Below, one piece after another: positions 6,841-26,206 of a stretch of DNA of 64,000 nucleotides. Each line of letters opens with the position of its first letter. The stretch's first letter is position 1. Location: the NCBI GenBank assembly GCA_038207785.1, contig JBBQZK010000001.1:9405-73404 (forward strand), in the 5' to 3' direction. The notes under the pieces were generated by a model. That model worked only from the letters and a program-made list of their open reading frames with translations. It searched no databases and had not been told where the DNA came from. Origin of the DNA: Candidatus Limnocylindria bacterium (GTDB lineage Bacteria > Chloroflexota > Limnocylindria > P2-11E). Both the position numbers and the translations under genes were made by a program.

Positions 6841-6867
6841 TGCGCGGAGCCTAGCAAAGCACGGTCC

Positions 6868-8719: not shown

Positions 8720-8773
8720 TCCAGCTCCCCCCTTACTGCGCGAACGCGGACGACCGGTGGCGTGGGTAGAACG

Positions 8774-10525: not shown

Positions 10526-10539
10526 ATGTCACGTGACAT
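10526..10539. promoter_or_regulatory. operator palindrome ATGTCACGTGACAT upstream of the substrate-binding-protein-dppBC-GntR operon
   Basis: It is a perfect 14-bp palindrome lying about 45 nt upstream of the substrate-binding-protein ATG. It is part of the repeated promoter-operator cassette. Confidence 0.7.
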
Positions 10540-10557
10540 TCCAGACCGGGCCACCCG

Positions 10558-10586
10558 ATGATGCGTCGCCGCCGATGCGCGGTCAA
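10558..10586 (-). promoter_or_regulatory. putative promoter: TTGACC (-35) - 17 nt - CATCAT (-10-like), directly upstream of the operator
   Basis: The same -35/17-nt/-10 arrangement recurs at 12119-12147, 16280-16308 and 24872-24900. Confidence 0.45.
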
Positions 10587-10597
10587 TGACCGCCGGC

Positions 10598-12061
10598 CTA
10601 CGGATACGGATTGACCGAAAGGGTGTTGAAGTTGCGGAGGAACGCCGGGATCGGCGCATCCGTGAAGGCCGGGGCGACCGCGCTGGCGTCCGGCCCGCCG
10701 ATGAGCTTGCCGTATGGGTTGCTGAGCCCAGCGGCAGCGGTGTTGAGATCGGCGGCCTTCGTGCTCGGCCAGCTGCCGTGGTCGATCCGGCCCAGCAGCA
10801 CCTGGATCGCGGCGATCTGCTCGGCGGCGGTGAACTGGCAGTGACCCGAGCGGTGCACGAGCAGCTGTCGGAGCTGGCTCGAGGTGCCGGCGTCCAGGAA
10901 CGCCTGCGCGTAGCCCTGGTCCTGGTTCGGGTATCCATAGGGGTCGGCCTGGGTGTGCATCGTCATGACGACCGCGCGCCCGATGTTGCCGCTGAAGATC
11001 GGATCGAGGTCCTCGACCTTCGTCACCGTGCCGGGATCCGCGCCGATGCGCGGCGCGCGCGCGAGCGTGCGGAGATCGGCGGCGAGGTTGAGTCCCGCGG
11101 CGGCATACATCGCCCGAACGATGTCGGCCGATGCCGAGCGCGCGAGCTGCGCCCCGTAGTCGACGCCGGTGTTCCAGGAGAAGTTCCCTCCGGTCACCGA
11201 GCCGTCGACGCTGTTCCAGGTGCCGACGCGGATCTCATAGTCGGCCCGGCCGTCGTCGTGATACATCCCATTGAATCGGCTGTTGAGGTACTGGTTGTAC
11301 TGCCGTGTCGCGTAATCGGTCGCGGCCGGCTGGGTCGCTCGCGCGTCGTCGATCCAATCCGGCGTATCGACCATCGCCTCGGCCAGCGCGAGGCGGGCGC
11401 GGCCTGCGGCCGTCTGCTGCGCGGCGTCGACCGTGGCGATGTAGGCGTTGTAGTAGCGGGTCAGCTGTCCGCCGTACTTGCCGATGTTCACCAGCGGCTG
11501 ATCGAATCCGAGGAGCTGCTGCATCACGAAGGCGTGGTCGAGGCGCTCGTTCGCGCGTCCGATGCTGCCGGCGATGTAGGTGCATTCCGCGAGCCCGCCG
11601 GCGAATCGCCCGGGATAGAACTGGAGCAGGTGCGCGGTCACCGCCCCACCGGCGGAGAGACCCCAGGCGATCGTCCGCGCCGGGTGACCGACGAGCCGCT
11701 CGAACGTGTCGAGCACGAGGGCCTGAGATGGATACATCTGCTTCGGCTCGTAGCAGAAGTCGCTGCAGGCGTACGAGCCCCCGGCGATCGCGAAGCCCTG
11801 GCCCAGCAGCCATTGGCGCGTCCACTGGTCGGAGCTGACCTGCGCGAGATTCGGGTCGCCCTGGATCCCGTGGCTGTAGAGGAAGAGCGTGCCGTTGTAG
11901 CTCCCCGGGACCTCGATGCGGTAGGTCGCGCCGTCGCTCATCGTTCCGACGTACACCGTCGGAGTGCTCGTCGCCGATGCCGACGTCCCGGTCAGGCCGA
12001 TCGCGACGACGAGTGCCACGCCGACGAGCCAGGCCGGCCAGCTGCTGCGCCCTGTCATCAT
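10598..12061 (-). CDS. secreted alpha/beta-fold hydrolase (esterase/depolymerase-like), signal peptide
   Basis: It starts MMTGRSSWPAWLVGVALVVAIGLTGTSASA and has a GGAGG RBS. It has a G-x-S-x-G nucleophile elbow, GLSAGG. The ORF-track start at 12691 is an over-extension. Confidence 0.5.
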   Translation of the reverse strand: MMTGRSSWPAWLVGVALVVAIGLTGTSASATSTPTVYVGTMSDGATYRIEVPGSYNGTLFLYSHGIQGDPNLAQVSSDQWTRQWLLGQGFAIAGGSYACSDFCYEPKQMYPSQALVLDTFERLVGHPARTIAWGLSAGGAVTAHLLQFYPGRFAGGLAECTYIAGSIGRANERLDHAFVMQQLLGFDQPLVNIGKYGGQLTRYYNAYIATVDAAQQTAAGRARLALAEAMVDTPDWIDDARATQPAATDYATRQYNQYLNSRFNGMYHDDGRADYEIRVGTWNSVDGSVTGGNFSWNTGVDYGAQLARSASADIVRAMYAAAGLNLAADLRTLARAPRIGADPGTVTKVEDLDPIFSGNIGRAVVMTMHTQADPYGYPNQDQGYAQAFLDAGTSSQLRQLLVHRSGHCQFTAAEQIAAIQVLLGRIDHGSWPSTKAADLNTAAAGLSNPYGKLIGGPDASAVAPAFTDAPIPAFLRNFNTLSVNPYP

Positions 12062-12080
12062 CGGACCTCCCCACGCTCGG

Positions 12081-12094
12081 ATGTCACGTGACAT
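12081..12094. promoter_or_regulatory. operator palindrome ATGTCACGTGACAT upstream of the secreted hydrolase gene
   Basis: It is a perfect 14-bp palindrome 20 nt upstream of the ATG. A TTGACC-N17-CATCAT promoter lies at 12119-12147. Confidence 0.7.
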
Positions 12095-12143
12095 GCAACG
12101 TGCACCCGGCCTTGCGCGATGATGGGCTTCCTGGGCCCTCGGG

Positions 12144-13493
12144 TCAATGACCGGGCCCGGAGGCCGCGGGCGCATCCGATCGTGCCGCGGCGAACAGCGC
12201 CGCGCGATCGACCGGCGTCCCGCGCTTGAACACCATCGCGATGCCGGTGGTCGCGGCGATCGTCCGCGTCGGGTCGCCGACGACCAGAACGAGGTCCGCT
12301 CGCTTCCCCGGCGCAACGACGCCGATATCGCTCGCCCCGAGCGTCTCTGCAGGCACGCTCGTCGCCGCCCGGAGCGCGGCGGCGGGTGAAAGGCCGGACC
12401 GCACGAGAAGCTCGAGCTCGCGATGGAATGAACTGCCCGGCAGGATGTAGGCGAACGGCGCATCGGTCGCGGCATGCAGGCGCACGCCCGCTTCGAACAT
12501 CGCGCCGGTGAACCGCATGACCTTCTCGAGCGCCCGCGCCGCCTGCGAGTAATCGGCCGCCGACCAGCCCTCGACGAACCGGTCACGCGTCTCACGCCAC
12601 CCGGAGCGCGCGACCGCGGCGTACTCGGCCATCGCCGGGTCCGCGTCGAGCGCCTCGATGCCGCGCCGGCCCCGTTCCACCGTGCGATCAAGGGTGATGA
12701 GCGTGGGGTTCACGTAGATCCCCTGCTCGGCCAGCCGCGCCGCGATGCGCTTGGTCCGGTCGGCTCCGAGGTCGACGGCCGCCCAGCCGCGGACGAAGTT
12801 GGCCCAGAACGCGCCGAGCCCGCGGCGGCGGCGATCCTCCGCCGGCCAGATGAGCTCCTCGGGCACGACCTCGGTGTAGAGGGACTGGGCGGTGTGCTCG
12901 AGACCGGCGACGCCGCAGTCGATGGCCTCGCCGGCGCGCACCTGTCCGAGATGGGCGCTCGTGCTCAGGCCGTGCTCGCGGGCTCGCCGGACGAACGTCC
13001 GCATGGCGGCGGCAGGCAACATCATGTACGCCTTACACGCGTCGACCCGCTTCTCGTCCAGCAAGTCGGCCGCGCGCACGGCATCCTCGTCATTCGCGAG
13101 GGCAAGGGAATGATCGGGCCAGAACGGCTCGGCGCCGTCGATCAGCGGACCGCAGCAATAGATGCGCGGGCCGCCGTCGCCACCGGAGCGCTCCGCGGCT
13201 CGCCACGGCAGGATGCGTTCGAAGGAGTTCCCGACGTCCTTGACCGTGGTGATGCCATAGGCGAGCCACAGGGGGAGCGCCTGCGGCTGCACGTGCGTGT
13301 GCATGTCGATGAACCCTGGCAGCACGGTGTGGCCACGCCCCGCGATGGTCCGGGCGCCCGCCGGCACTGCCGTGCGTTCGCGCGGCCCGCAGGCGACGAT
13401 CAGCTCGCGCTCGAGCACGACAGTGGCGTCCTCGATCACCGGGGCGCCGGTCCCATCGAACAGCCGCGCGCCGACGATCGCGATGGGCGCCAC
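12144..13493 (-). CDS. amidohydrolase-superfamily metal-dependent hydrolase
   Basis: It has ...LPGFIDMHTHV... with HxH metal ligands and a C-terminal ...GTDAP.../...GKRADLVLV... region. The GTG start at 13493 follows the M20 stop; the ORF-track start would overlap 104 nt. Confidence 0.7.
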   Translation of the reverse strand: MAPIAIVGARLFDGTGAPVIEDATVVLERELIVACGPRERTAVPAGARTIAGRGHTVLPGFIDMHTHVQPQALPLWLAYGITTVKDVGNSFERILPWRAAERSGGDGGPRIYCCGPLIDGAEPFWPDHSLALANDEDAVRAADLLDEKRVDACKAYMMLPAAAMRTFVRRAREHGLSTSAHLGQVRAGEAIDCGVAGLEHTAQSLYTEVVPEELIWPAEDRRRRGLGAFWANFVRGWAAVDLGADRTKRIAARLAEQGIYVNPTLITLDRTVERGRRGIEALDADPAMAEYAAVARSGWRETRDRFVEGWSAADYSQAARALEKVMRFTGAMFEAGVRLHAATDAPFAYILPGSSFHRELELLVRSGLSPAAALRAATSVPAETLGASDIGVVAPGKRADLVLVVGDPTRTIAATTGIAMVFKRGTPVDRAALFAAARSDAPAASGPGH

Positions 13494-13497
13494 GGGC

Positions 13498-14853
13498 TCA
13501 GCCGGCGTCGGCGAACTCGCTGACGAAACGGGCCGTCGCCCGGGCGATCGGCTGAACGAGGTCCAGCCGGAGGTTCTCGTTCGGCGCGTGCAGGCGCGCA
13601 TCGGGATGCGTCATCCCGAGCGCGACGAACGGGACCTTGTGCGGATCGCAGATCGGATGCATCGGCGCCGTGCCGGGGCCGGAGATCAATCGAAGCCCTG
13701 GCGCGCCGTAGACCGCCTCGGTCGCCCGCTCCGCCGCGCGCACGAGCGGGTCATCGATCGGCGTCCAGTACGGCCGCTCCGCGGAATGCAGGGTCAGCTC
13801 GACATCGGCGAAGCCACGGCGCGCGAGGTGCTGCCGCAGCTGCTCGAACACCCTGAGTGGATCCTGGTCGGGCACGAGCCGCAGATCGAGGCGGGCCCTG
13901 GCCACCGCGGGAAGGATGGTCTTCGTTCCCGGCCCCATCCACCCTGCGGCGAGGCCGGTGATGTTGCAGGTGGGACTGAAGATCTGGGCCACCTTCGCGG
14001 CCTGTCCCGTCCGCCCCGCGACGAAGGCGGTCGCGCCATGCAGCGCGGCGAAGGCGCGCTCGTCGAACGGCAGCGTATCCAGATGCGCGAGCTGCCGTGC
14101 GGACGGCGGCAGAGCGTCGTCGAGGAATCCGTCGATGATGACCGAGCCATCCGGCGCGACCAGCGTGGCCAGCGCGGATGCCAGACGCGCCCCGGCGTTC
14201 GGCAGCAGCGAGGCATACATCGAGTGGGCGTCCTGGGCCAGCGTGCGGACCTCTAGCTCGAGATACAACATGCCGCGGACCCCGCAGCTCAAGAGCGGCC
14301 GATCGGCCGCGTCGACCTGACCGCCCTCGTTCAGCGCGCCGTCGGCGACGCCGAGCTCGGGACGCTTCGCGAGGAGGGCGCTCAAGTGCGGGCTGCCGGT
14401 CTCTTCCTCACCCTCGACCAGGAAGCGCACCCGGCAGGGCAGCTCGCCGAACGCCTCGCGGTACGCCTCGAGGACGTGGATGCGGGTCACCAGGTGCCCC
14501 TTGTTGTCGACGACGCCGCGCGCGAACAGCCGGCCATCACGCACCGCGGGGCTGAACGGCGGCGTCACCCATTCGGTCAGCGGATCGGCCGGCTGCACGT
14601 CGTAATGCTGGATCGCCAGCAGCGTCTTCGGTCCGGGTCCGATCTCCCCCACGACGAGCGCCGGGGCGCCGGGCAGCTCGACGGTCATGACCGCGCAGCC
14701 CGCGGCGCGAAGGCGCTCCGCGACCCACCGCGACGCGGTCGCGAGCGGCTGCGCCTGAGCGGTCTCGGACGGGATCGCGCAGAGCTCCCGGAGGTCCTCG
14801 ACGATGCGCGGCTGACGCTCGGACAGCAGGCGGTCGAAGGGACCGAACTCCAC
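13498..14853 (-). CDS. M20-family metallopeptidase (dipeptidase/ArgE/CPG2-like)
   Basis: It has ...HYDVQPAD...GVVDNKGHLV... and ...FLVEGEEETGS... motifs. It is ATGA-coupled to the upstream amidohydrolase. Confidence 0.8.
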   Translation of the reverse strand: MEFGPFDRLLSERQPRIVEDLRELCAIPSETAQAQPLATASRWVAERLRAAGCAVMTVELPGAPALVVGEIGPGPKTLLAIQHYDVQPADPLTEWVTPPFSPAVRDGRLFARGVVDNKGHLVTRIHVLEAYREAFGELPCRVRFLVEGEEETGSPHLSALLAKRPELGVADGALNEGGQVDAADRPLLSCGVRGMLYLELEVRTLAQDAHSMYASLLPNAGARLASALATLVAPDGSVIIDGFLDDALPPSARQLAHLDTLPFDERAFAALHGATAFVAGRTGQAAKVAQIFSPTCNITGLAAGWMGPGTKTILPAVARARLDLRLVPDQDPLRVFEQLRQHLARRGFADVELTLHSAERPYWTPIDDPLVRAAERATEAVYGAPGLRLISGPGTAPMHPICDPHKVPFVALGMTHPDARLHAPNENLRLDLVQPIARATARFVSEFADAG

Positions 14854-16235
14854 TAGCCCGCCTTCGCCGGCGCGCCGCCCGGTACGGCGGGCTGATCGTT
14901 CCTCGCGAGCGCATCCGCCGCCGCGAGCAGATCGGCGCGGTGGTGCAGCCGCCCGCCGAGCATGACCTGCTCGATGTCGTTGAGCGCCCGGATGTCGCGC
15001 GCCACGTCGCCGCGCGCGATGACCAGGTCGGCCCGCGCGCCCGCCCGGATGGTGCCCTCATCGGGAGCGCGGAACGCGGCCGCGGCCTGCCCGGTGGAGG
15101 CGTGGATGGCCTCGACCGGCGAGAGGCCGGCTTCGACCAGGTACTCGATCTCGCGGATGAGGCTCGCGCCGGGCGCGACCAGGCCGTCGACGGTGTCGGT
15201 CCCGGTGAGGATGCGGATCCCGGCTCGGTGCGCGAGACCGGTGAAGGCGGTCATGCCGGCCACCGAATCCTGCAGCTCGGTGATCTCGTCGTCGGTCAGC
15301 GGGTCGATGTACGGCGAGCCGGCGGTCTGCACGATCGCTTGGATCGCGGGGCTCAGGTGATCGATGCGCGGCCCGTCGCTGCGCGTCCGCTCGCCGACGT
15401 TGGACACCACGTTCTGGACCACGATCGTCGGATCGAGGAAGATCCGATCGCGGTGCGCCTGCCAGCTCTCGAGGGTCCGGGTCACCGCGCGCGAGTCCGG
15501 GTCGAACCGCGCCCAGTGCGCGGTGCGCCGCATCACGCGGAGGTCGAGCGGGAACCGGCCGACATAGGCCGGGTCGTCGTGCACCTCGCCGGGATGGGCC
15601 CGGACGTGCTCGAGGATCGTGAGGCCCTGGGAGATCGCCTCGACGCTCGTCATCGAGAGCGGCACGTGGCCGGTCAGCAGGATGTCGTGCTCCCGCGCGA
15701 ATGCGGTGATCTGGCGCATCGCGCCCGAGGAGACCCAGTTGTGGATCTTGAGGAACTCGACCCCGAAGGCGAGGTTGTTCTCGAGCAGCAGCTGGGTGTC
15801 GCGGCCCTCCCGCAGGAACCGCAGCTCGTTCTCCGCGCCGTTCAGGGTGACGCCGCTGATCCGCAGCCGGGGATTGACCTCATCCAGGTCGAGCCAGCGA
15901 CGGACGGCCGCGAGCTTGCCCAATGGCCCGCCCGCGTCCTTCAACCTGGTGACGCCATGGGCCAGCAGCAGCTTGAGCACCCATTTCGAGCGCGCGAGGG
16001 TGCCGTGGCCGATGTGGACGTGCATGTCCGACAGCCCCGGCAGCACGCTGTGCCCGGAGGTGTCGATGGCGGTCGCCGAAGACACTTCCGGAGGCGATCC
16101 CTGACCGACCGCGGCGATGCGTCCGCCGCGCACGTGGATCCAGGATCGCTCGAGCGGCGCGGCGCCGGTCCCGTCGATGAGCAGGCCGCCCGAGAGGATC
16201 AGATCGTTCGCGGTCGGGTCGGCCGTGTCACGCAT
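14853..16235 (-). CDS. amidohydrolase-superfamily protein
   Basis: It has ...VLPGLSDMHVHIGHG... and a C-terminal ...GTDTVDG.../...GARADLVIARGD... region. It is the first gene of the amidohydrolase-M20-amidohydrolase operon. Confidence 0.75.
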   Translation of the reverse strand: MRDTADPTANDLILSGGLLIDGTGAAPLERSWIHVRGGRIAAVGQGSPPEVSSATAIDTSGHSVLPGLSDMHVHIGHGTLARSKWVLKLLLAHGVTRLKDAGGPLGKLAAVRRWLDLDEVNPRLRISGVTLNGAENELRFLREGRDTQLLLENNLAFGVEFLKIHNWVSSGAMRQITAFAREHDILLTGHVPLSMTSVEAISQGLTILEHVRAHPGEVHDDPAYVGRFPLDLRVMRRTAHWARFDPDSRAVTRTLESWQAHRDRIFLDPTIVVQNVVSNVGERTRSDGPRIDHLSPAIQAIVQTAGSPYIDPLTDDEITELQDSVAGMTAFTGLAHRAGIRILTGTDTVDGLVAPGASLIREIEYLVEAGLSPVEAIHASTGQAAAAFRAPDEGTIRAGARADLVIARGDVARDIRALNDIEQVMLGGRLHHRADLLAAADALARNDQPAVPGGAPAKAG

Positions 16236-16253
16236 CGCTGCTCCAAGCCTTGG

Positions 16254-16267
16254 ATGTCACGTAACAT
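16254..16267. promoter_or_regulatory. operator ATGTCACGTAACAT in a divergent intergenic region; a TTGACC-N17-CATCAT cassette at 16280-16308 serves the minus-strand operon
   Basis: It lies 19 nt upstream of the minus-strand ATG at 16235 and 24 nt upstream of the plus-strand ATG at 16291. Confidence 0.7.
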
Positions 16268-16290
16268 GCAGGCGATCGGATGATGCGCGC

Positions 16291-17559
16291 ATGAGCACGG
16301 TCGGTCAAAGCGGGACGCTGCTGATCACGGGGGCGACCGTCTGGGACGGGACCGGCGACGCGGTGCGCGAGGACGTCGCGATGCGGATCGCGGGCTCGCG
16401 CATCGCGGCGATCGGCCGCACCGCGGACTTCGGCGCGCAGCCCGTGTCAGGTGCCGAGATCGACGGCCATGGCCTCTTCCTGATGCCCGGTCTCATCAAC
16501 ATGCACGAGCACCTGATCTTCCGTGGCACAGTCGGGCCACCGGCCGCGGCCCTCGGGCGCGGCGCCCCCGAGCTGACGATCCACGCCGTGCGGGTCGCGG
16601 CTACGGCGCTCGCGCAGGGCATCACGACGGTCCGCGACATGGGCACGAAGTTCGAGATCGCCCTCCGGCTGCGCGACGCGATCGGCGCCGGGCAGATCCT
16701 CGGTCCGCGCATCCTCGCCTGCAACAGCGCGATCCGGGTCACCGGCGGTCACGGCTATCAGGCGGTCCACGCCGATGGGGTCGCCGAGTTCCAGCGCGCG
16801 GCGCGGACGCAGCTCGCGGCAGGCGCCGATTTCATCAAGGTCATGGCGAGCCACGATCCGACGCCGATGCCCGGGCCCGAGCCCACGCGGCCGGAGTGCA
16901 CGGTCGACGAGCTCCGCGCCGCGTTCGAGGTGGCGCACGACTGGGGTCATCACGCCGGGTGCCACGTCATGGGGAGCACCGCGATCTCCCGCGCGCTGGA
17001 CGCCGGCGCCAATGTCATCGAGCACGGTCACTTCCTGACCGAGGACCAGGCCATCCGGATGGCTCGCGATGGGGTCACCTTCACGCCGACCCTCAGCGCG
17101 TACAACGTGCAGACCATGCATCCGCGTTTCAAGCGCGGCGCGGCATGGAAGGCGGCGCACGACGCGCTGCGCTCCGGGCATGCCTCGGCCATGCGCGCCG
17201 CCGTGAGCGCTGGTGTCGCGATGGTCGTGGGAACGGATTCCGTCGGCTGCTACGCCGAAGAGGTCGACCTCCTCCGCAAGGCCGGGGTCGGGACGTTGGA
17301 ATCGCTTCGCGCGTGCACCTCGAACGCCGCCCGCGCGCTCGGCTTGGACCAGGAGATCGGGACGATCAGCGTCGGTCGAATGGCGGACATCATCGCGCTG
17401 CGCGCCGATCCCCGGACCGACCCATACGCCCTCGAGCAGGTGCAGCTCGTGATCCGCGAGGGCCGGGTGCACCGACCGGCGGATCTGGTGTACGCCGAGT
17501 CCGCGCTTCCCGCCGAGGTATCGCTGACGACCCTGGTGCGCTCGCCTAGCAGCGCCTGA
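16291..17559 (+). CDS. amidohydrolase-superfamily protein
   Basis: It starts MSTVGQSGTLLITGATVWDGTG... and has ...MPGLINMHEHL... and ...GTDS.... The ORF-track start at 16117 is an over-extension. Confidence 0.75.
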   Translation: MSTVGQSGTLLITGATVWDGTGDAVREDVAMRIAGSRIAAIGRTADFGAQPVSGAEIDGHGLFLMPGLINMHEHLIFRGTVGPPAAALGRGAPELTIHAVRVAATALAQGITTVRDMGTKFEIALRLRDAIGAGQILGPRILACNSAIRVTGGHGYQAVHADGVAEFQRAARTQLAAGADFIKVMASHDPTPMPGPEPTRPECTVDELRAAFEVAHDWGHHAGCHVMGSTAISRALDAGANVIEHGHFLTEDQAIRMARDGVTFTPTLSAYNVQTMHPRFKRGAAWKAAHDALRSGHASAMRAAVSAGVAMVVGTDSVGCYAEEVDLLRKAGVGTLESLRACTSNAARALGLDQEIGTISVGRMADIIALRADPRTDPYALEQVQLVIREGRVHRPADLVYAESALPAEVSLTTLVRSPSSA

Positions 17560-18496
17560 GCTTCTGGAGGCTGCGGAGCTCGCGCGGTGGATCCAGGTAG
17601 CGGCCGGTCGTGCTCCAGGAGGTCTCGCCGACATAGAGGTCGCCGCGCGAATCCATCGCGAGGCCGTGTGGCGTGATGAAATCGCCGTCGCCTTCGCCGG
17701 CCGGCCCGTTCCCGATCCGGGCCACGCAGTCGCCGGCGGTCGTGTACACGCTGATCCGCGGACCCAGGCCCGGCGCCTCCTTATTAAAGGGGTATGTCGG
17801 GCCCAGCTCCGAGACGTACACATGGTCACGCGGACCGTCGGCTTCGATCCACAGTGCGCAGGCGCGATGCATGTTCACCCATTGATCGAGGACCCGACCG
17901 GAACGGTCGAAGATCTGGACCCGGTGGTTCTCGCGGTCGGCGACATAGAGCCGGCCGTCGCGATCAAGCGCGAGGTTGTGCGGAAGGTTGAACTCGCCCG
18001 GGTCGGTACCCGATCCGCCCCACGATGCGAGCCGGCGACCGTCCTGATCGAAGCGGTGCACCCGGGCGTTCCCGTAGCCGTCGGACACGTAGAGCTCGCC
18101 GGTTCCCGGGTCGACGACGGCATGCGTCGGCCGGTTGAACGGCGCACCGGAGTGGAACGCAGCCGGGGCGTTCGGCGTGCCGATCTCCCGCTCGACCTTC
18201 CCTTCCACGCTGCACCGACGAACGGTGTGGTCGCCCTCGTCGACGAGCCAGAGGGACCCGTCGGCCGCGGACGACGCGCCATGCGGGGCGCTGAAGATCC
18301 CCTCGCCCCACGACGAGAGAAAGGAGCCGTCGCGGTCGAACACCATGATCGGGTGGTCGCCGCGGGTGAAGAGGAACACCCGGTCCTCGCGATCGACCGC
18401 CACGGCGGCGACCTCCTTGAGACCCATCCCGGCCGGCAGGCGTGGCCAGTCGGGCACCGTCTCGAAGCGGAACGCGCCGGCCCCGAGGACCGCCAT
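17546..18496 (-). CDS. NHL-repeat beta-propeller protein
   Basis: It has repeated ...LYVSDGYGNARVHRFD... and ...LYVADRENHRVQIFD... blades. The ATG is at 18496; the ORF-track N-terminal extension is Arg/Gly junk. Confidence 0.6.
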   Translation of the reverse strand: MAVLGAGAFRFETVPDWPRLPAGMGLKEVAAVAVDREDRVFLFTRGDHPIMVFDRDGSFLSSWGEGIFSAPHGASSAADGSLWLVDEGDHTVRRCSVEGKVEREIGTPNAPAAFHSGAPFNRPTHAVVDPGTGELYVSDGYGNARVHRFDQDGRRLASWGGSGTDPGEFNLPHNLALDRDGRLYVADRENHRVQIFDRSGRVLDQWVNMHRACALWIEADGPRDHVYVSELGPTYPFNKEAPGLGPRISVYTTAGDCVARIGNGPAGEGDGDFITPHGLAMDSRGDLYVGETSWSTTGRYLDPPRELRSLQKLRRC

Positions 18497-18498
18497 CG

Positions 18499-19209
18499 TC
18501 AGGCAGTGACCACGAGGGAGAGCGAGCCCACCGCGCCGAGCGTGATCGTCCACCTTCCGACGGCGAGCGGCACGGGCGCGAAGACGGCCCCCGTCGCCAC
18601 GAGCGACGAGCGACCGGCGGCGGCGGTCGCCGCCAGGTCCAGCGCGCGGGCGATGGCGGCACGAACGTCGACCTGGCCGCGCGACACGACCTCGCCGTCG
18701 CGGGTCACCACCGCCTCCAGCGGATCCGCCGGCGGCGCGATCGGCCGTCCGAAGAGCATCGCCCCCTGCAATCCGAAATCGGCGACGGCGAGGGGCAGCG
18801 TGACGCTCCAGTCGCGGACCCGGCAATCAGCGATCTCGATGCACGGCAGCGCCATCGCGTGGCCGTCGGCCAAGAGGACGCCGACCTCGGTCTCGAACAG
18901 CGGCGCGATCAGTGAGCGCAGCGAGATCACCGAGTCGGCCGCGACGACGCTGGTGTCGAACACCGGGGCACTGAACGGCCGGTCGGTCCCGAACCGCCGT
19001 TGGATCGCCGGGTCGGTCGCGGCGATCTTCCAGCCGATCTGTTCCGCGCCGTCGCGGCGAAGCCGCTCGTACAGCAGTGCGGCGACCTGGCTGCCCTCCG
19101 CCGCCGACAGGCCCCCGATCGGCGGGAGCGGGTCGATGGGCTGCGCCGAGCGGCGCGCGGCCCAGAGGGCATCGGCGTGTGCCGCTACGGTGTCGCCGTC
19201 AGCGGTCAC
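18499..19209 (-). CDS. 2-keto-4-pentenoate hydratase / MhpD-HpaH-like hydratase-decarboxylase family protein
   Basis: Its architecture resembles E. coli MhpD (…SAAEGSQVAALLYERL… …ETEVGVLL… …CIEIADCRVRDWS…). Confidence 0.5.
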   Translation of the reverse strand: MTADGDTVAAHADALWAARRSAQPIDPLPPIGGLSAAEGSQVAALLYERLRRDGAEQIGWKIAATDPAIQRRFGTDRPFSAPVFDTSVVAADSVISLRSLIAPLFETEVGVLLADGHAMALPCIEIADCRVRDWSVTLPLAVADFGLQGAMLFGRPIAPPADPLEAVVTRDGEVVSRGQVDVRAAIARALDLAATAAAGRSSLVATGAVFAPVPLAVGRWTITLGAVGSLSLVVTA

Positions 19210-20120
19210 GGGAGATACGCCAGCAACCGGCGAGCGTTGTCGACGAAGAGCATCCGCAGCTCACGATCGGTCAGCCCGGCGTCGCGGAGGAGCGGCACGA
19301 AGCCGGTGAGCATGACGTCATAGCCCGCGCCAGCGTACGCGTGCAGGCGCGTCGTGAACGACACGTCGCACGAAAGGAACAGCTGGGCGCCGAACCCCCG
19401 TCGCACGAGGGTCGCGACGGTACGGGCGCGCTCCTCGTCGCTCTGCACGTCGGTCAGACCGACGTGATCGATACCGAGCGAGGCGCCGGTATCGAGCACC
19501 CGCAGCTGGAGATCGAGATCGCGCCGGTCGCCGAAGTGTCCGATGACGACGCGGCCCAGGTCGGCACCCTCCGAACGGAGCACGTCGACCTGCTGCAGCG
19601 CGAGCTCGCCGAACCAGGTATGGGTCAGGATCGGCGCCCCTGTAGCGGCCTGCGCCATCGCCGCCGCGCGGAACACCCGCTCCTCGGTCGGGCTCATCCC
19701 GTGCCGCCAGGTCCCGATCTCTCCGATCACCCCCGCGCGCACCCCACTGTCGCCGATGCCCTCGCGGAGCTCGCGCTGGAACACCAGGGCGAGCTCCGGG
19801 GCGGTCGAGGTCCGCACGCTGTCGGGGTAGTAGGGCTCGCGGTACAGCCCGGTGGCCGCGACGACCCGCACGCCCGACCGCTCCGCGGCGGTCCGCAGGC
19901 CGACGACATCGCGTCCGAGACCCTCGGGGGTCAGGTCCACGAGCGCGCCTCCCCCGGCCTCCCGGTAGCGGACGAGCTCGCTGGCCAGGACGTCGACGTC
20001 GGCGAGGACATGGACCAGGCCCCGCCAGGATCGATCGAACGCGCAGAGCAGGTGCTCGTGGGTCTGGGTATGACCCAAGGCTTCGCCATCGATCGGGCCG
20101 GCGACGGTCATGGCGCGCAC
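19206..20120 (-). CDS. phosphotriesterase-family (PTE/Php-like) TIM-barrel hydrolase
   Basis: It has ...GHTQTHEHLL... at the N-terminus and ...GVIGEIGT... and ...PILTHT.... It is ATGA-coupled. Confidence 0.75.
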   Translation of the reverse strand: MRAMTVAGPIDGEALGHTQTHEHLLCAFDRSWRGLVHVLADVDVLASELVRYREAGGGALVDLTPEGLGRDVVGLRTAAERSGVRVVAATGLYREPYYPDSVRTSTAPELALVFQRELREGIGDSGVRAGVIGEIGTWRHGMSPTEERVFRAAAMAQAATGAPILTHTWFGELALQQVDVLRSEGADLGRVVIGHFGDRRDLDLQLRVLDTGASLGIDHVGLTDVQSDEERARTVATLVRRGFGAQLFLSCDVSFTTRLHAYAGAGYDVMLTGFVPLLRDAGLTDRELRMLFVDNARRLLAYLP

Positions 20121-20123
20121 GCG

Positions 20124-21161
20124 CTAGAAGGCCAACGCTCCGTCCTTCACCACCGCGTGCCCGTCGAGCTCCAACGTCGCGTCGCGCATCGTCATGTCGA
20201 TGTGCGCCGGCGCCATCGCGCGTCCGCCGATGTGCACGTCCGCTCCCAACGCGAAGCTCACGCATCCGGTCGTGTGCGTGTCCTCGCATGGCGCGGCGAC
20301 ACCGCTGAGCCGGCAGCGTGGATTCGTCCCGAATGCCAGCTCGGTCACGTGATAGATCTCGCGGTCGCCGTGGCGCGCCAGCCAGCGGCCGAGCTTCCCT
20401 GCTTCGAGATCGCCCTCCACCTTCGTGACGTACCCGTCTTCGACGATGAAGCGGACGGGCTCGCCGAGCTGCTTGAAGTCGTTCGCCGCGATCGACCTGT
20501 CGATCACGATGATGCCGTTCGCGGTGCCGTCGTTCGGGACCCGGCTCACCTGGCCACCGGGCAGCGACTGCCGCGCACCCTTGGCCACGACCCCGTTGTG
20601 GGTCTTGCCGGTGTAGTCACCGAGCTCGAGGGTGAGGTCGGTGCCCGCCGGCGACGTCACGCGTACCTTCTTTGCGTTGGCTATGAGCGATCCGCCCTGA
20701 TCGGTGCGCGCGCGCAGCGCCTCGACCTCCTCGAGCGAACCCGGAAGCAGGCGCATCGCGGATTCGGTCGTGAGGTAGCTCAATGACACCACTCGCGTGC
20801 CGCCCGCCAGGATCTCCTTGAACGCGGGCGCGAACATCAGGAAGTCCAGATCCGACGTGGCGAACGCGATGACCGGGCAGCTCGCGAGCGCGCCAGCGAG
20901 ACCGGCGGGGATGCGTACACCGCCCGGCGGCAGGGAGGCTCCGGCGAACAAGCCGAACTCGGCCATCGGCCGATACGCAAGCGGCTGGTAGGTGAAGACG
21001 TACGGGCGGATGCCCGAGGTGATCGCCGCACAGCGCAGCGCCTCGACGAGGTCGGCGGTCACGGTCTCATCCCACACGATGAGGACCTCGTCGCCACGAC
21101 GCAGGGTCAGCGCGCCTTCGAGGACCGCCGCGGCCTGGGCGACGAGCTGGCTGGCCGACAT
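20124..21161 (-). CDS. M29-like aminopeptidase / NicX-like protein
   Basis: It has ...LRRGDEVLIVWDETVTADLVEALRCAAITSG... The ATG at 21161 has a GGGGGAG RBS. Confidence 0.4.
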   Translation of the reverse strand: MSASQLVAQAAAVLEGALTLRRGDEVLIVWDETVTADLVEALRCAAITSGIRPYVFTYQPLAYRPMAEFGLFAGASLPPGGVRIPAGLAGALASCPVIAFATSDLDFLMFAPAFKEILAGGTRVVSLSYLTTESAMRLLPGSLEEVEALRARTDQGGSLIANAKKVRVTSPAGTDLTLELGDYTGKTHNGVVAKGARQSLPGGQVSRVPNDGTANGIIVIDRSIAANDFKQLGEPVRFIVEDGYVTKVEGDLEAGKLGRWLARHGDREIYHVTELAFGTNPRCRLSGVAAPCEDTHTTGCVSFALGADVHIGGRAMAPAHIDMTMRDATLELDGHAVVKDGALAF

Positions 21162-21185
21162 CACAACTCCCCCGCCAAATATGAC

Positions 21186-21199
21186 ATGTTACGTTACAC
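21186..21199. promoter_or_regulatory. operator variant ATGTTACGTTACAC in a divergent intergenic region
   Basis: The TGTTACGTTACA core matches TGTnACGTnACA. It is flanked by TGACAT and GTGTCAC. Confidence 0.55.
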
Positions 21200-21204
21200 G
21201 TTAG

Positions 21205-21948
21205 GTGTCACTCCGCGAAGTGTTCATCGAGCGCATGACCTGGCCCGACATCGAGGCGGCGCTCGCCGCCGGCGCGCGTACCGCCGTCATCGCCGCCGGC
21301 GCGACCGAGCAGCATGGCCGGCACCTCCCGGAGGGGTCGGATGCCTTCATGGGCGAGGCCGTCGCCGAGCGGGTCGCGCGCGAGCTCGGCGACGCGTTGG
21401 TCGCGCCGGTCATCCGGCCGGGGTGCTCGGATCACCCTCTCGACTTCCCTGGAACGATCTCGATCCCGGCCGACACCCTCATCGACATCCTCGACGCATA
21501 CGTCACGTCGCTCCGTCGCAACGGCTTCGAGCGGTTCGTCGTGTTCTCGACGCACGGTGGGAACTTCCCGGTCCTCGAGCGGTGGCAAGGGTCCCGAAGT
21601 GCGCCGGGGCTCATCGTCATCCCCGATCGGCGCGGTCACGTCCGACCGGTCTACCAGTTCGCGGTGGCCTCCGGAACGGAGCAGCCCGGGGTGCTGCACC
21701 ACTCCGACGCCTTCGAGACGTCGCAGATCCTCGCCTTGCATCCCTCGCTCGTCCACCTGGACCGCGCGGAGCGCGGATATGTGGGTCCCCTGACCGCGGA
21801 CGAGCTGTTCGCCAGAGGCACCCGCATCGTCAGCCCGAACGGCGTGCTCGGGGATCCGGCGGGGGCGACGGCCGAGATCGGTGAGGTCATGTTGCGGTCG
21901 GTGACCGACTACATCGTGGGCAAGGTGCGGGCAGCGACACCGGCGTGA
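21205..21948 (+). CDS. creatininase-family amidohydrolase (creatinine amidohydrolase/MftE-like)
   Basis: It has ...AAGATEQHGRHLPEGSD... and ...FSTHGGN... motifs. It uses a GTG start. Confidence 0.75.
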   Translation: MSLREVFIERMTWPDIEAALAAGARTAVIAAGATEQHGRHLPEGSDAFMGEAVAERVARELGDALVAPVIRPGCSDHPLDFPGTISIPADTLIDILDAYVTSLRRNGFERFVVFSTHGGNFPVLERWQGSRSAPGLIVIPDRRGHVRPVYQFAVASGTEQPGVLHHSDAFETSQILALHPSLVHLDRAERGYVGPLTADELFARGTRIVSPNGVLGDPAGATAEIGEVMLRSVTDYIVGKVRAATPA

Positions 21949-21970
21949 GCGTCGTTCGACCGCGATCCCT

Positions 21971-22897
21971 GTGATACGCGTGCAGACCGTGCTGGGACCG
22001 GTGGAGCCGGCTTCGGTCGGTCAGGCCTCGATGCACGAGCACATCAAATGCGATTTCTGGAAATACCACCTCGAGCTCAGCTACGACGGCATCCTCGACG
22101 ACGAGGATCTCCTCGAGGCCGAGCTTCGATCGTTCCGCGGGACCGGTGGCCGGACGATCGTCGACGCGACGACGATCGGGATCGGGCGGGACCCGCTCGG
22201 TCTGGCACGGCTGGCGCGCGCCGCCGACGTCCAGATCGTCATGGGCGCGGGCTGGTATCGCGAGCGCGTCTACTCGCCGGAAGTAGTCGAGCGCACGAGC
22301 AACGAGCTTGCCGATGTGCTCATCCGTGAGTTCTCCGACGGCGTGGGCACGACCGGGGTGCGTCCGGGGATCATCGGCGAGATCGGGACCGAACGGTCAC
22401 TGGTCACGGCGGCGCAGGAGCGGGTCTTCCGCGCGGCCGCCCGCGCCCAGCGCGAGATCGGCGCGTCGATCACCACGCACACCACCTACTTCGGCGGCCT
22501 CGCCCTGGAGCAGGTCGCCATGCTCCGGCGGGAGGGCGTGCCGCCGGAACGCATCGTGATCGGACATCTGGCCGAGCAGCGATCGATCGTTGACGTGCTC
22601 GAGGTCGCGCGCACCGGGGTCTTCATCGAAGTCGACCACGTGGGCGCGCTCCAGGTCCAGTTCCAGCCGGAAGGTCAGCGGGTCCAGAATGTGGTCGCGC
22701 TCGTGCGCGCCGGCCACCTCGATCAGCTGCTCCTCTCGATGGACATCTGCAAACGGTCGCAGCTCGAGGCCTATGGTGGCAACGGCTACGGCTACCTGTT
22801 CCGCGTGTTCGTCCCACTGCTCCGCGAGGCGGGGCTGACCGAACGGGAGGTCACGACGATCCTGGTCGACAACCCGCGCCGCGTCCTCGCGTTCTGA
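21971..22897 (+). CDS. phosphotriesterase-family hydrolase (second paralogue)
   Basis: It has ...QASMHEHIKCDF... and ...GIIGEIGTERS... and ...SITTHTT.... It is a paralogue of the gene at 19206-20120. Confidence 0.75.
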   Translation: MIRVQTVLGPVEPASVGQASMHEHIKCDFWKYHLELSYDGILDDEDLLEAELRSFRGTGGRTIVDATTIGIGRDPLGLARLARAADVQIVMGAGWYRERVYSPEVVERTSNELADVLIREFSDGVGTTGVRPGIIGEIGTERSLVTAAQERVFRAAARAQREIGASITTHTTYFGGLALEQVAMLRREGVPPERIVIGHLAEQRSIVDVLEVARTGVFIEVDHVGALQVQFQPEGQRVQNVVALVRAGHLDQLLLSMDICKRSQLEAYGGNGYGYLFRVFVPLLREAGLTEREVTTILVDNPRRVLAF

Positions 22898-23817
22898 TGT
22901 CCGCCCCGCGCCCGAGGCCGGCCGGGGGCGCTCCGGGCATCGTCGCGATCGCGGGCGCGGGCCGGATGGGCGCGCAGATCGGCGCGGAGTACGCGCTCGC
23001 CGGCCACCCGACGATCTTGATCACCCGCGCGGGCGCCACCGCCGACCGTGCGCTCGAGGGGGCGACGGCCGCGATCCGGCTCCTCGCGGAGGAAGGCCTT
23101 GCGAGCGAGAACGATGCGCGAGCGGCCGTCCGCCGTCTGGGGATGGCGACCGACCTGCCGGGCGCGTGCCGCGGGGCGGACATCGTCGTCGAATCGGTCG
23201 CCGAGGACTTCGAGACGAAGGTCAGGGTACTCACGGCCGCGGGCGACGCGGCGCCCGACGCGATCCTCGCGACGAACACCTCGTCGCTCTCGATCGGGGC
23301 GCTCGGCGACGCGGCCGGCGTGGCTGACCGGCTCATCGGGACGCACTACTGGAATCCACCGACGCTCATGCCGCTCGTCGAGGTCGTCACCGGACCGAAT
23401 ACCGCCCCGATCGTGCGAGACCGGATGCTCGAGACGCTCCGGCGGCTCGGCAAGGATCCGGTCGTCGTCGGCGACGTGCCGGGCTTCGTCTGGAACCGTC
23501 TGCAGTTCGCGTTGCTCCGCGAGGCGGCGGCGCTCGTGGCTGCGGGCGTGGTCAGCGCGCCGGACCTCGATCGCATCGTCGCTCGCGGCCTCGCGCGGCG
23601 CTGGAGCCTCGTCGGACCGTTCGACACCATGGCCCTCGGCGGGCGGGAGACCTTCCTCGCGATCGCCCGCGGGCTGTTCCGCGAGCTCAGCGCAGGGACA
23701 TCGGTGGACGACCTGGCGGCGCTGCCGGAGACGGGACCACGCCGGCTCGCCGGGCTGGCGCAGGAGCGCGACCGAGGGTTGGCCGAGCTGCGGCGGCGCG
23801 ATGGCGCCGCGGAGTGA
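22897..23817 (+). CDS. 3-hydroxyacyl-CoA dehydrogenase family protein (NAD-binding)
   Basis: It has the ...IVAIAGAGRMGAQIG... Rossmann fold and ...NTSSLSI... and ...HYWNPP.... It is TGATG-coupled. Confidence 0.8.
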   Translation: MSAPRPRPAGGAPGIVAIAGAGRMGAQIGAEYALAGHPTILITRAGATADRALEGATAAIRLLAEEGLASENDARAAVRRLGMATDLPGACRGADIVVESVAEDFETKVRVLTAAGDAAPDAILATNTSSLSIGALGDAAGVADRLIGTHYWNPPTLMPLVEVVTGPNTAPIVRDRMLETLRRLGKDPVVVGDVPGFVWNRLQFALLREAAALVAAGVVSAPDLDRIVARGLARRWSLVGPFDTMALGGRETFLAIARGLFRELSAGTSVDDLAALPETGPRRLAGLAQERDRGLAELRRRDGAAE

Positions 23818-24845
23818 CGGTCGTCCCGGATCCGGCCCGCCTACGGATCCTCGCACCCGGCATCGCCCTCGCGCTCGCGCTGACCGCCGCGGCTGTCGCT
23901 CTCGGCGTTGTCGAAACGCGCGCGTTCGGCCACGATCTCATCGAGCCGCTCGTGCTCGCGCTCCTGCTCGGCGTCGTCGCGCGCAACGTGCTTCCGCGCC
24001 CCGAACGGTTCGTCGCGGGCGCGAATCTCGCGTCCAAGCAGGTGCTCGAGGTCGGCGTCGGGCTCCTTGGCGCGAGCGTCGATCTGCGCCAGATCCTGGC
24101 CACCGGACCGGCCCTCGTCTCGCTCGTCGTCATTGCGGTGGCGGTCGGCATGTCGGGAAGCTACGTCCTTGGTCGGATGCTGGGGCTCTCGGCGATCCTT
24201 GCCGCGCTCGTCGCGGTCGGCAATGCCATCTGCGGGAACTCGGCGATCGCCGCGGTCGCGCCCGTCCTGCGGGCGGAAAAGAAGGACGTGGCCAGCGCCA
24301 TCGGACTGACCGCGGTCCTGGGCGTCTGCCTCGTGCTGCTGCTGCCGGCCCTCATTCCGGTCTTCCTCCTGAGCAACTACCAGTACGGCATCCTCGCGGG
24401 CATGAGCGTGTACGCGGTGCCGCAGGTCATCGCGGCGGCATTCCCCGTCAGCCAGCTGTCGGGCGAGGTCGCGACCCTGGTCAAGCTGACCCGGGTCTTG
24501 CTCCTCGGTCCGACCGTGCTGATCGTGGCGTTGCTCGCGGCGCGCCGCGGCGGGCCGGTCGGTGTGCGGCGGAGCTGGTCCACCTACCTTCCCTGGTTCG
24601 TGCTCGCGTTCCTGATCCTCGCCGCGCTCCGCAGCACGGGCGTCCTCGGCGAGGCCGTTGCCACACCCGCGCGCGAGGCGAGCCGGTGGCTCACCACGAT
24701 CGCGATGGCCGGGCTCGGCTTCGGGGTGGAGCTGGCCGCGGTGAAGCGCGTCGGTCCTCGCGTCGGCGTCGCGATCGTGCTCTCGCTCGCGCTCATGGCG
24801 GGCCTCACCCTCGTCCTGCTGCGCCTGCTCGCGATCGCCGGCTGA
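23814..24845 (+). CDS. YeiH/UPF0324-family membrane protein (putative sulfate exporter family)
   Basis: It is a polytopic membrane protein. The GTG start overlaps the upstream stop (GTGA). Confidence 0.6.
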   Translation: MTVVPDPARLRILAPGIALALALTAAAVALGVVETRAFGHDLIEPLVLALLLGVVARNVLPRPERFVAGANLASKQVLEVGVGLLGASVDLRQILATGPALVSLVVIAVAVGMSGSYVLGRMLGLSAILAALVAVGNAICGNSAIAAVAPVLRAEKKDVASAIGLTAVLGVCLVLLLPALIPVFLLSNYQYGILAGMSVYAVPQVIAAAFPVSQLSGEVATLVKLTRVLLLGPTVLIVALLAARRGGPVGVRRSWSTYLPWFVLAFLILAALRSTGVLGEAVATPAREASRWLTTIAMAGLGFGVELAAVKRVGPRVGVAIVLSLALMAGLTLVLLRLLAIAG

Positions 24846-24910
24846 TCGCGGTCCGGACCGTCACCAGCCAGTTGACCCGCACCGCCATCGAGCGCATGCT
24901 TGCCGCATAC

Positions 24911-24924
24911 ATGTCACGTGAAAT
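24911..24924. promoter_or_regulatory. operator ATGTCACGTGAAAT, with a TTGACC-N17-CATGCT promoter at 24872-24900, upstream of the DJ-1 pair
   Basis: It matches the cassette architecture, here on the plus strand. Confidence 0.6.
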
Positions 24925-24953: not shown

Positions 24954-25571
24954 GTGACTGACCGCCGGCGGGTCGGCATCGTGCTGTTCGAGGATGTCGA
25001 GGACATCGATTATGTCGGGCCCCTCACCGTCTTCGGGATGGCCTCGCAGCTGTTCCCGGACGAGCTGGAGACCGTGACGGTGAGCGCCACCGGAGCGGCG
25101 GTCCGGACGTCGATGGGCGTCTCGGTGCTGCCGCACGCGAGCTTCGCGTCCGCGGGACGGATCGACATCCTGGTCGTGGCCGGCGGGACCGGACATCGCG
25201 CAGCGATGCTCGATCGCGAGCTGACCGACTGGATCGCCGAGCGCGCGCGGGATGCCGAGATCGTCTCGTCGGTCTGCTCGGGAGCGTTCATCCTCGCGGC
25301 CGCCGGCGTGCTGCGCGATCAGCCCGCGACCGCCGCCTGGATGGCCCTCGACCGGCTGCGCGCGACGTTCCCGAGCCTGGACGTCCGCTCGGACGTGCGG
25401 TGGGTCGACGAAGGCGGCGTGGTCACGAGCGCCGGGGCGTCCGCGGGCATCGACATGAGCCTCCATCTCGTGGACCGGCTGCTCGGCCCGGCCGCGGCCG
25501 CGCGGGTCGTGAAACACATGTCGTATACCGGCTGGCCGGTGCGTGAAGGGGTGCCGGGTGCGATCGGATAG
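24954..25571 (+). CDS. DJ-1/PfpI-family protein (glutamine amidotransferase-like class 1)
   Basis: It has ...RRVGIVLFEDVEDIDYVGP... and the nucleophile elbow ...SVCSGAFILAAAGVL.... The GTG start is at 24954; the ORF-track TTG at 24900 would include the operator. Confidence 0.7.
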   Translation: MTDRRRVGIVLFEDVEDIDYVGPLTVFGMASQLFPDELETVTVSATGAAVRTSMGVSVLPHASFASAGRIDILVVAGGTGHRAAMLDRELTDWIAERARDAEIVSSVCSGAFILAAAGVLRDQPATAAWMALDRLRATFPSLDVRSDVRWVDEGGVVTSAGASAGIDMSLHLVDRLLGPAAAARVVKHMSYTGWPVREGVPGAIG

Positions 25572-26187
25572 CGATCCGCGTCGGGTCGGCGTGCTCGTCT
25601 ACCCGGACGTCGAGGACCTCGACTTCGTCGGACCGCTCGAGGTCTTCGGCATGGCCGCGCGGCTGCGCACGGGCGCGCTCGAGGTGCTCACCGTCGCCGA
25701 GACCACCGCGCCGGTGCGCACGTCGTTCGGGCTGTTGGTCACCCCCCACTGCAGCTTCGCGACTGCGCCGCCGATCGACATCCTCGTCGTGCCGGGCGGC
25801 GGTGGCGCCTGGGCGAGCCTCGAGAACCGCACCTTGCTGGACTGGATCGCGCGGAGCGCGGCGGGGGCCGAGATCACGACCTCGGTGTGTTCGGGGGCGA
25901 TGCTGCTCGCGGTGGCGGGCGTCCTTCGTCACCAGCCCGCGACGACGCACTGGAACGCGATGAGCCGGATGCGCGAACGGTTCCCCGATCTCGAGCTGCG
26001 GGAGGGCGTGCGCTGGGTGGACGAGGGCGGCGTGATCACGAGCGCCGGCGTCTCGGCGGGGATCGATATGGCTTTGCACGTCGTCGAGCGGCTCTTCGGA
26101 CCCGAGACCGCGGACCTCACCGCGCACTGGCTGCAGTACGAGCCCTGGCGCGCCGCCCGGCTGGCGGCGGCCTCGGCCGCCGGATGA
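25558..26187 (+). CDS. DJ-1/PfpI-family protein (tandem paralogue)
   Basis: It is roughly 55% identical to the upstream gene (…SVCSGAMLLAVAGVL…). An alternative GTG lies at 25543. It overlaps the upstream gene. Confidence 0.7.
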   Translation: MRSDSDPRRVGVLVYPDVEDLDFVGPLEVFGMAARLRTGALEVLTVAETTAPVRTSFGLLVTPHCSFATAPPIDILVVPGGGGAWASLENRTLLDWIARSAAGAEITTSVCSGAMLLAVAGVLRHQPATTHWNAMSRMRERFPDLELREGVRWVDEGGVITSAGVSAGIDMALHVVERLFGPETADLTAHWLQYEPWRAARLAAASAAG

Positions 26188-26206
26188 ACGGGCCCGATCG
26201 GGCGGA

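Follow-up and report, generated by a model that had tools for sequence, protein, structure and literature searches.

Bacterial promoters served by group 1 sigma factors (sigma-70) classically carry TTGACA-17-TATAAT, with high-GC variants such as the TANNNT -10 element of Actinobacteria. In the lac system the operator O1 is centred near +11, and operators located downstream of the transcription start are known to repress by a roadblock mechanism, while the AraR-type GntR operators of Bacillus read ATTTGTACGTACAAAT. For GntR regulators in general the operator rule is NyGT-Nx-ACNy, with x = 2-3 typical of the FadR subfamily (PMC4494728), and the experimentally defined operator palindrome of Atu1419 from Agrobacterium fabrum is ATGTATACAT (PMC7797058). 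Here we describe, in a 64,000-nt stretch of DNA from a Candidatus Limnocylindria bacterium (Chloroflexota; G+C content ~70%; hereafter the window), four units in which a TTGACC and a CATNNT hexamer are followed by a 14-bp palindrome, ATGTYACGTGACAT, that lies close before a gene start. Judged from sequence comparisons, these units are probably four independent sigma-70-type promoters, each with a downstream operator of one and the same repressor, most likely the GntR/FCD protein encoded at 6061-6840.

A first-pass annotation of the window had reported four TTGACC hexamers followed after exactly 17 nt by CATCAT (three copies) or CATGCT (one copy, site 4), and all four were recovered at the same positions. 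The elements of the four units are as follows:

10581..10586, minus strand: -35-like TTGACC of unit 1, inside GGTCATTGACC and 6 nt past the stop codon of the S9-peptidase-like gene (10598-10600)
10558..10563, minus strand: -10-like CATCAT of unit 1, 17 nt after the -35-like hexamer
10526..10539, minus strand: putative operator palindrome of unit 1, ATGTCACGTGACAT, 18 nt past the -10-like hexamer, with ribosome-binding site (RBS) and ATG at 10478-10495
12142..12147, minus strand: -35-like TTGACC of unit 2, whose TGA (12144-12146) is the stop codon of the upstream amidohydrolase open reading frame (ORF) 12144-13601
12119..12124, minus strand: -10-like CATCAT of unit 2
12081..12094, minus strand: putative operator of unit 2, ATGTCACGTGACAT, 24 nt past the -10-like hexamer, with RBS and ATG at 12059-12072
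16303..16308, minus strand: -35-like TTGACC of unit 3, within the first codons of the divergent amidohydrolase gene 16291-17559
16280..16285, minus strand: -10-like CATCAT of unit 3
16254..16267, minus strand: putative operator of unit 3, ATGTTACGTGACAT as read on the minus strand, 12 nt past the -10-like hexamer, with RBS and ATG at 16233-16246
24872..24877, plus strand: -35-like TTGACC of unit 4
24895..24900, plus strand: -10-like CATGCT of unit 4
24911..24924, plus strand: putative operator of unit 4, ATGTCACGTGAAAT, 10 nt past the -10-like hexamer

The pattern TTGACC-N17-CATNNT occurs exactly four times in the window, against an expectation of 0.03 from dinucleotide-preserving shuffles, and none of 100 shuffles of the window gave four matches. 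When the pattern was relaxed to TTGACN-N15..20-NANNNT, the matches with a 17-nt spacer were again these four sites only, and a generic sigma-70 consensus scan of positions 8000-27000 returned four matches, three of which are the units, with site 4 (CATGCT) scoring slightly under the threshold of that scan. Sites 1 and 2 carry intact copies of the palindrome ATGTCACGTGACAT, and the copies at sites 3 and 4 deviate from it at one position each. The palindrome does follow each hexamer pair as annotated before, but at 18, 24, 12 and 10 nt (sites 1-4), that is at 10-24 nt instead of the 9-22 nt given earlier, and its placement directly before an RBS and start codon holds for sites 1-3; at site 4 the start codon is a GTG (24954), and no clear Shine-Dalgarno sequence precedes it. 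If transcription is assumed to start ~7 nt after the -10-like hexamer, the putative operators would span about +4 to +31 with no fixed helical phase, which agrees with the earlier placement of a repressor site in the early transcribed region and widens its proposed range of about +10 to +30.

The closest relatives of the host are metagenome-assembled genomes labelled Candidatus Limnocylindria (phylum Chloroflexota), and their loci add seven intact units (L001, L008 twice, L009, L014 twice, L015), at orthologous as well as other operons:

L008, orthologue of site 3: TTGACC-17-CATCAT, 12 nt to the putative operator
L008, orthologue of site 2: TTGACC-17-CATCAT, 21 nt to the putative operator
L009: TTGACC-18-CATTAT, 14 nt to the putative operator
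L001, from a region outside the window: TTGACG-18-CATGCT, 13 nt to the putative operator, preceding an ornithine-cyclodeaminase-like gene (judged from its N-terminal sequence alone)
L014, amidohydrolase gene: TTGACC-17-CATCAT, 12 nt to the putative operator
L014, solute-binding-protein gene: TTGACC-17-CATCAT, 20 nt to the putative operator
L015, solute-binding-protein gene: TTGACC-17-CATCAT, 18 nt to the putative operator

Over the resulting set of 11 units, four from the window and seven from relatives, pairwise identity is 97% in the -35-like hexamer, 87% in the -10-like hexamer and 95% in the palindrome, compared with 41% in the spacer. TTGACC, which matches TTGACA at five of six positions, is present in 10 of the 11 units and TTGACG in the remaining one; the spacer measures 17 nt in nine units and 18 nt in two. 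The -10-like hexamers of these units (CATCAT, CATGCT and CATTAT) and that of the ilv leader described below (CATCGT) match TATAAT at four or three of six positions, and all have A as their second and T as their sixth base. The site 1 orthologues in L015 and L014 illustrate the pattern, as both hexamers and their 17-nt distance are kept while the spacer sequence is essentially unrelated. In L008 the site 1 orthologue (11470-11540) is degraded throughout, with TGGACC as -35, a 13-nt spacer and the palindrome reduced to GTGTCACTTGACAT (two mismatches), a joint decay that fits a single functional unit gone out of use, with an assembly error as the alternative. Because the spacer is conserved in length and free in sequence, with a tolerance of 17-18 nt, the pattern has the signature of a sigma-70-type promoter, and the spacing first noted in the window is thus maintained, at 17 or 18 nt, across seven further units in relatives.

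The hexamers also occur without the palindrome. The only other match to the relaxed pattern in the window lies upstream of a leader region (41283-41488, minus strand) that heads an ilvB-ilvC-leuA-leuCD-like operon and lacks the palindrome:

41459..41488, minus strand: comparison promoter without operator, TTGACC-18-CATCGT (read from 41488 to 41459), before the ilv/leu leader peptide 41373-41447 and the terminator hairpin 41315-41343

An ORF of 24 codons (MRQLGLVVVIGIVLIEGDGRRLGG) begins 11 nt after CATCGT and has Leu, Val or Ile at 12 residues; it is followed by a strong terminator-like hairpin with a short U-run and then by an RBS and ATG at 41285. The region is a classical leader-peptide attenuator, without an Rfam match. 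In L027, whose ilvB is 86% identical, TTGACC-18-CATCGT is again present, with a different spacer sequence and 8 nt before MKGLVVVVIGIVLIGGDGRRLGG (site 3800), and two further intergenic regions of L027 hold TTGACC-18-CACAAT and TTGACG-18-CATCGT (TTGACS-18-CAYNNT). Since the hexamer pair thus precedes an unrelated ilv/leu leader that has no palindrome, the best reading on these few sites is that the hexamers form the general promoter of the lineage, of the sigma-70 type, and that the palindrome is a putative operator specific to the regulon. The earlier interpretation as a sigma-70-type -35/-10 promoter with a downstream repressor site therefore gains comparative support, from hexamers and spacing that are kept while spacers diverge and from the same pair at the ilv leader.

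Start codons can lie very close to the -10-like hexamer, with the ilv leader ATG 8-11 nt after CATCGT and an ATG of the L014 amidohydrolase gene 12 nt after CATCAT. Both distances hint at near-leaderless mRNAs. The ilv leader is directly preceded by genes for a PucR-type helix-turn-helix protein (41525-42217, minus strand) and an ACT/DUF5612 protein (42442-43221, minus strand), an arrangement also found in L027.

The candidate for the protein that would bind the palindrome was not named in the first-pass annotation and is encoded at the end of the operon behind unit 1:

6061..6840, minus strand: GntR/FCD regulator (PF00392 and PF07729), last gene of the unit 1 operon, candidate repressor

Pfam assigns this protein an N-terminal GntR winged helix and a C-terminal FCD domain, and its closest solved relatives by sequence, all of the GntR/FCD type, include Atu1419, TM0439 and McbR. 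No other transcription-factor gene shows a consistent linkage to the palindrome. The loci of L015 and L014, whose GntR homologues are 85% and 67% identical, contain perfect palindromes, and the GntR/FCD gene is the sole annotated transcription-factor gene in L014 (16 kb) and L015, with other loci including unannotated products. In a 97% relative a perfect palindrome lies ~6 kb downstream of the regulator gene, the locus examined stopping short of the upstream operon. At greater distance, L012/L013 (62% homologue) have only two-mismatch versions, ATGTCACGTCGCAT and ATGTTACGTAGCGT, and L016/L017 (52%; genomes labelled Actinomycetota) carry ATATCACGTGACAT, with at most one mismatch, in the regulator's own divergent upstream region. 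By comparison, ~165 kb of control loci, selected for 30%-identical GntR proteins or non-syntenic S9 homologues, contain no palindrome at one mismatch or fewer. In a scan of genomes for the GntR protein, the only close relative recovered lies on a contig that runs away from the operators, and the six other matches are ~30% identical and lack the palindrome; the S9-peptidase homologues at 56% identity (L010, L011, L026), which served as negative controls, are not syntenic and have no operator.

The ATGT...ACAT ends of the palindrome place GT and AC symmetrically and may fit the GntR rule NyGT-Nx-ACNy in its general form, and the inner GTCAC and GTGAC would give x = 1. The flanks are weakly symmetric (T-R-C before the palindrome, CC or G after it). 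A literature search for TGTCACGTGACA matched only unrelated subjects (knock-down of human hexokinases by short hairpin RNA; Shewanella PrpF). On linkage alone, the repressor that would bind the palindrome is most likely the GntR/FCD protein 6061-6840.

Several observations weigh against the reading of the units as sigma-70-type promoters controlled by this regulator. The -10-like CATCAT begins with C where a T is usual. The window contains no promoter of this form besides those of the four units and the ilv leader, so that few sites underpin the consensus as a general one, and L028, a 79% ilvB relative, shows no matching promoter before its ilv leader (this relative does keep the leader attenuator, in a different form). 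In the 62% relative L012 the palindrome lies 25 nt after TTGACC and no CATNNT is present at 17-18 nt, and no module resembling TTGACC-17-CATNNT at a useful score precedes three further palindrome-like sites of the window, at 21186, 28880 and 33133 (listed below). Finally, the palindrome has 6 nt between GT and AC versus the 2-3 nt typical of the FadR subfamily, and because of this distance the GntR assignment rests on linkage and not on motif class.

A more far-reaching version of our proposal would treat promoter and operator as a plug-in module that is kept, lost and perhaps spread as one lineage-specific unit, with partial gene conversion behind the sequences GGTCATTGACC and CATCATCG that sites 1 and 2 have in common. 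At some targets the ATG of the operator would be the start codon of a near-leaderless mRNA, such that one site gates both transcription and translation initiation, and the regulator would be an FCD-type GntR protein with a GT-N6-AC geometry not described for the subfamily. We consider this version improbable as a whole.

Alternatively, TTGACC-17-CATCAT might be read by an alternative sigma factor or an activator specific to the regulon and not by the housekeeping sigma factor. This would accommodate the unusual uniformity of the hexamers and the non-canonical C at the first -10 base, as well as the finding that almost all TTGACN-16..18-NANNNT matches in ~58 kb of related regulon loci are operator-associated. 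However, the pair also stands before the ilv/leu leader in two genomes and at the two other intergenic sites in L027, no sigma-factor gene is found among the annotated genes of the window, and TTGACC followed after 17 nt by a hexamer with A as its second and T as its sixth base is the group 1 sigma pattern. A dedicated factor is therefore an unlikely explanation for the four units.

The first-pass annotation had seen in the units a modular, possibly copied, regulatory cassette. In a fuller form of this view the ~75-bp unit would be copied or portable, would spread by duplication or gene conversion and would recruit genes into the regulon. Nearly invariant hexamers across operons and the joint decay of promoter and operator in L008 could be taken in its favour, as could GGTCATTGACC and CATCATCG, which sites 1 and 2 share. 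These two sites also have in common GGTCAATGACCG (10581-10592 and 12142-12153), already noted by that annotation as overlapping or abutting the upstream stop codon and confirmed here (the TGA stop is inside TTGACC at site 2 and 6 nt off at site 1). Yet the 17-nt spacers of the four window units agree at just 2-8 of their 17 positions, close to what chance gives at 70% GC, the stretches between -10 and operator differ in length (10, 12, 18 and 24 nt) and in sequence, and flanking repeats are lacking. Moreover, neither the GGTCA extension nor GGTCAATGACC is present in the L015, L014 and L009 orthologues, and identical hexamers occur without an operator at the ilv leader. The copied-cassette claim is thus not supported and appears quite unlikely; the likeness of the four units probably reflects a common sigma factor and a common repressor, not copying.

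A related question is whether another regulator might have a second operator in GGTCAATGACC, a sequence that overlaps with the -35 of units 1 and 2. Its 11 bp form a perfect palindrome, which was found twice, exactly at two of the units, but the other two units lack it, it is weakened in L008 (AGTCATTGACC) besides being missing at the L015, L014 and L009 orthologous sites, and its one-mismatch matches elsewhere fall inside genes, which makes a second operator very unlikely. Least probable of all is that the palindrome acts as a 5' untranslated region (UTR) hairpin controlling RNA stability or translation and not as a DNA operator: although it lies within the predicted 5' UTR and all its position-5 C-to-T variants are oriented to give a U-G wobble in the transcript, the stem has just 5 bp, the four predicted 5' UTRs fold like shuffles (z -0.8 to +0.9) and have no Rfam match, the changes at site 4 and at the 28880 site would disrupt the stem, related sites are located in divergent regions and at gene starts, and the palindrome co-occurs with the gene of a DNA-binding regulator.

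We return to the promoters with downstream operators of a single repressor, and to the genes that they would control:

6061..10480, minus strand: unit 1 operon, with family-5 solute-binding protein 8774-10480, ATP-binding cassette (ABC) permeases 7766-8719 and 6868-7800, and GntR/FCD regulator 6061-6840
10598..12061, minus strand: unit 2 gene, alpha/beta-hydrolase, prolyl-oligopeptidase-like (S9)
12144..16235, minus strand: unit 3 genes, amidohydrolase 14853-16235, M20 dipeptidase-like 13498-14853, amidohydrolase 12144-13601
24954..26187, plus strand: unit 4 genes, two DJ-1/PfpI-family proteins

On the minus strand, units 3, 2 and 1 follow one another within a densely packed run of genes, where the intergenic gaps are no longer than the units themselves. 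The amidohydrolases have weak similarity to Xaa-Pro dipeptidase, and an NCBIfam search of the regulon enzymes reached no equivalog cut-off. Taken together, the peptide importer, the S9 and M20 peptidases, the amidohydrolases and DJ-1/PfpI proteins, along with the CDO-like, aminotransferase and asparaginase II genes next to the further palindromes described below, suggest a function in peptide or amino-acid scavenging. The peptide-type ABC operon (6061-10480, minus strand) contains genes for the binding protein and two permeases and none for an ATPase, as in L014 and L015, and the ATPases of this transporter must therefore be encoded elsewhere.

We propose that, as long as no ligand is present, a dimer of the repressor would sit on the palindrome of each unit and prevent promoter escape or early elongation there. 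As the putative operators at +4 to +31 have no fixed helical phase, the predicted direction of regulation is a simple steric or roadblock repression. The gaps between units 3, 2 and 1, which stand one behind the other, are too short to hold terminators, and transcription coming through from a promoter further upstream in the series would therefore be halted by each operator as well. A ligand, probably derived from a peptide or an amino acid, would bind the FCD domain and cause the repressor to leave the DNA, and this release would switch on the family-5 peptide ABC importer, the S9-like peptidase, the M20 dipeptidase, the amidohydrolases, the DJ-1/PfpI proteins and the repressor gene itself. 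Upon induction, transcription would add up along the series towards the transporter and repressor genes, and the repressor, encoded at the end of the unit 1 operon, would thereby exert negative autoregulation.

The inventory of operators drawn up in the first-pass annotation was incomplete, as weaker palindrome-like sites are also present at three places in the window that lack the promoter module:

21183..21204, no strand assigned: operator-like block GACATGTTACGTTACACGTTAG in the 40-bp divergent region between NicX-like and creatininase-family genes, with a palindrome-like site at 21186
28880..28893, minus strand: operator-like GTGTCACGTAACAT, directly before a CDO_I-like gene and conserved in L014 (position 337)
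33133..33158, no strand assigned: a pair of operator-like sites that overlap, ATGCTACGTAACAT and ATGTTACGTCAGTG, flanked by divergent genes for an aminotransferase and asparaginase II

The 22-bp block GACATGTTACGTTACACGTTAG takes up most of its 40-bp intergenic region, abuts the creatininase-family start codon and is identical in L008 (858-902), where the flanks are different. It contains overlapping ACGTTA repeats together with the -10-like hexamers TAACGT and TAACAT on the opposite strand. A divergent -10 of this kind, with the T-variant half-site read as TAACAT on the opposite strand, was also considered for the units and was rejected, as inspection by eye found no -35 partner at site 3 or in L001. 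Just upstream of the 28880 site is a GC-rich hairpin, GCCGCTCC-cctcga-GGAGCGGC (28895-28925, minus strand), which lies inside the 3' end of a long ORF (28883-30145) whose TAA stop codon belongs to the palindrome. The two sites at 33133-33158 are 12 bp apart and the divergent genes on either side are separated by only ~9 bp; the longest aminotransferase ORF starts at the ATG of one of them. A comparable overlap is seen in L014 (3497-3510), where the amidohydrolase ORF apparently starts at the operator's own ATG, 12 nt after CATCAT, with no other in-frame start upstream of the conserved N-terminus, which suggests a near-leaderless mRNA whose start codon would be covered by the repressor.

Outside these genomes, an unrelated low-GC metagenome contig (L023, Ga0124853_1507093, GC 0.41) has one perfect and three two-mismatch copies of the palindrome at ~897-1030; this was a chance find and may represent a separate regulon with a similar site. 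A metagenome scan with TTGACC-N28..55-ATGTYACGTGACATC, a pattern that leaves the -10 unspecified, gave seven matches. All their contigs have 38-48% GC and show nothing resembling CATNNT at a distance of 17 nt, and the matches were put down to chance.

As a whole the locus is a conventional repressor-controlled catabolic regulon, in keeping with standard bacterial gene control and without a new regulatory principle. Its interest lies in the host group, since Limnocylindria are Chloroflexota abundant in soil and freshwater that lack a cultured model, and among the titles retrieved in our literature searches on Limnocylindria and Chloroflexota promoters none dealt with promoters or regulons of this class. 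The comparison provides a first look at promoters here, in the form of a testable candidate housekeeping consensus for the lineage, TTGACC-17/18-CATNNT, as well as a defined putative operator and a candidate GntR/FCD repressor for a peptide or amino-acid scavenging regulon. Both may be of use in annotating related genomes and in designing expression tools, and they add a putative GntR operator with unusual half-site spacing.

Among known systems, AraR operators resemble the palindrome in being of the TGT-ACGT-ACA type with a central ACGT, but AraR has a LacI/GalR-like effector domain, another spacing and another regulon. With lac O1 and roadblock repression the units share a predicted repressor site in the initially transcribed region, at variable distance and with no fixed helical phasing; unlike lac O1, several units stand in series along one gene array, where a read-through block may be inferred. 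The resemblance to sigma-70 promoters extends to the -35 (five of six positions), the 17-18-nt spacer, A2 and T6 in the -10 and the location in short intergenic regions ahead of genes, whereas the first -10 base is C and not T and the hexamers are unusually uniform among sites. Closest are the FadR/VanR-subfamily GntR repressors (Atu1419 of A. fabrum, PDB 6z74; TM0439, 3sxy/3fms; McbR, 4p9f), which have the same GntR and FCD architecture and, in the case of Atu1419, a short palindrome with ATGT...ACAT ends. As in FCD repressors, the regulator gene is linked to catabolic targets and is probably autoregulated, and relief by a small ligand would apply by analogy; what sets the present system apart is a palindrome centre of 6 nt (CACGTG) compared with 2-3 nt, and a host from an uncultured class of Chloroflexota.

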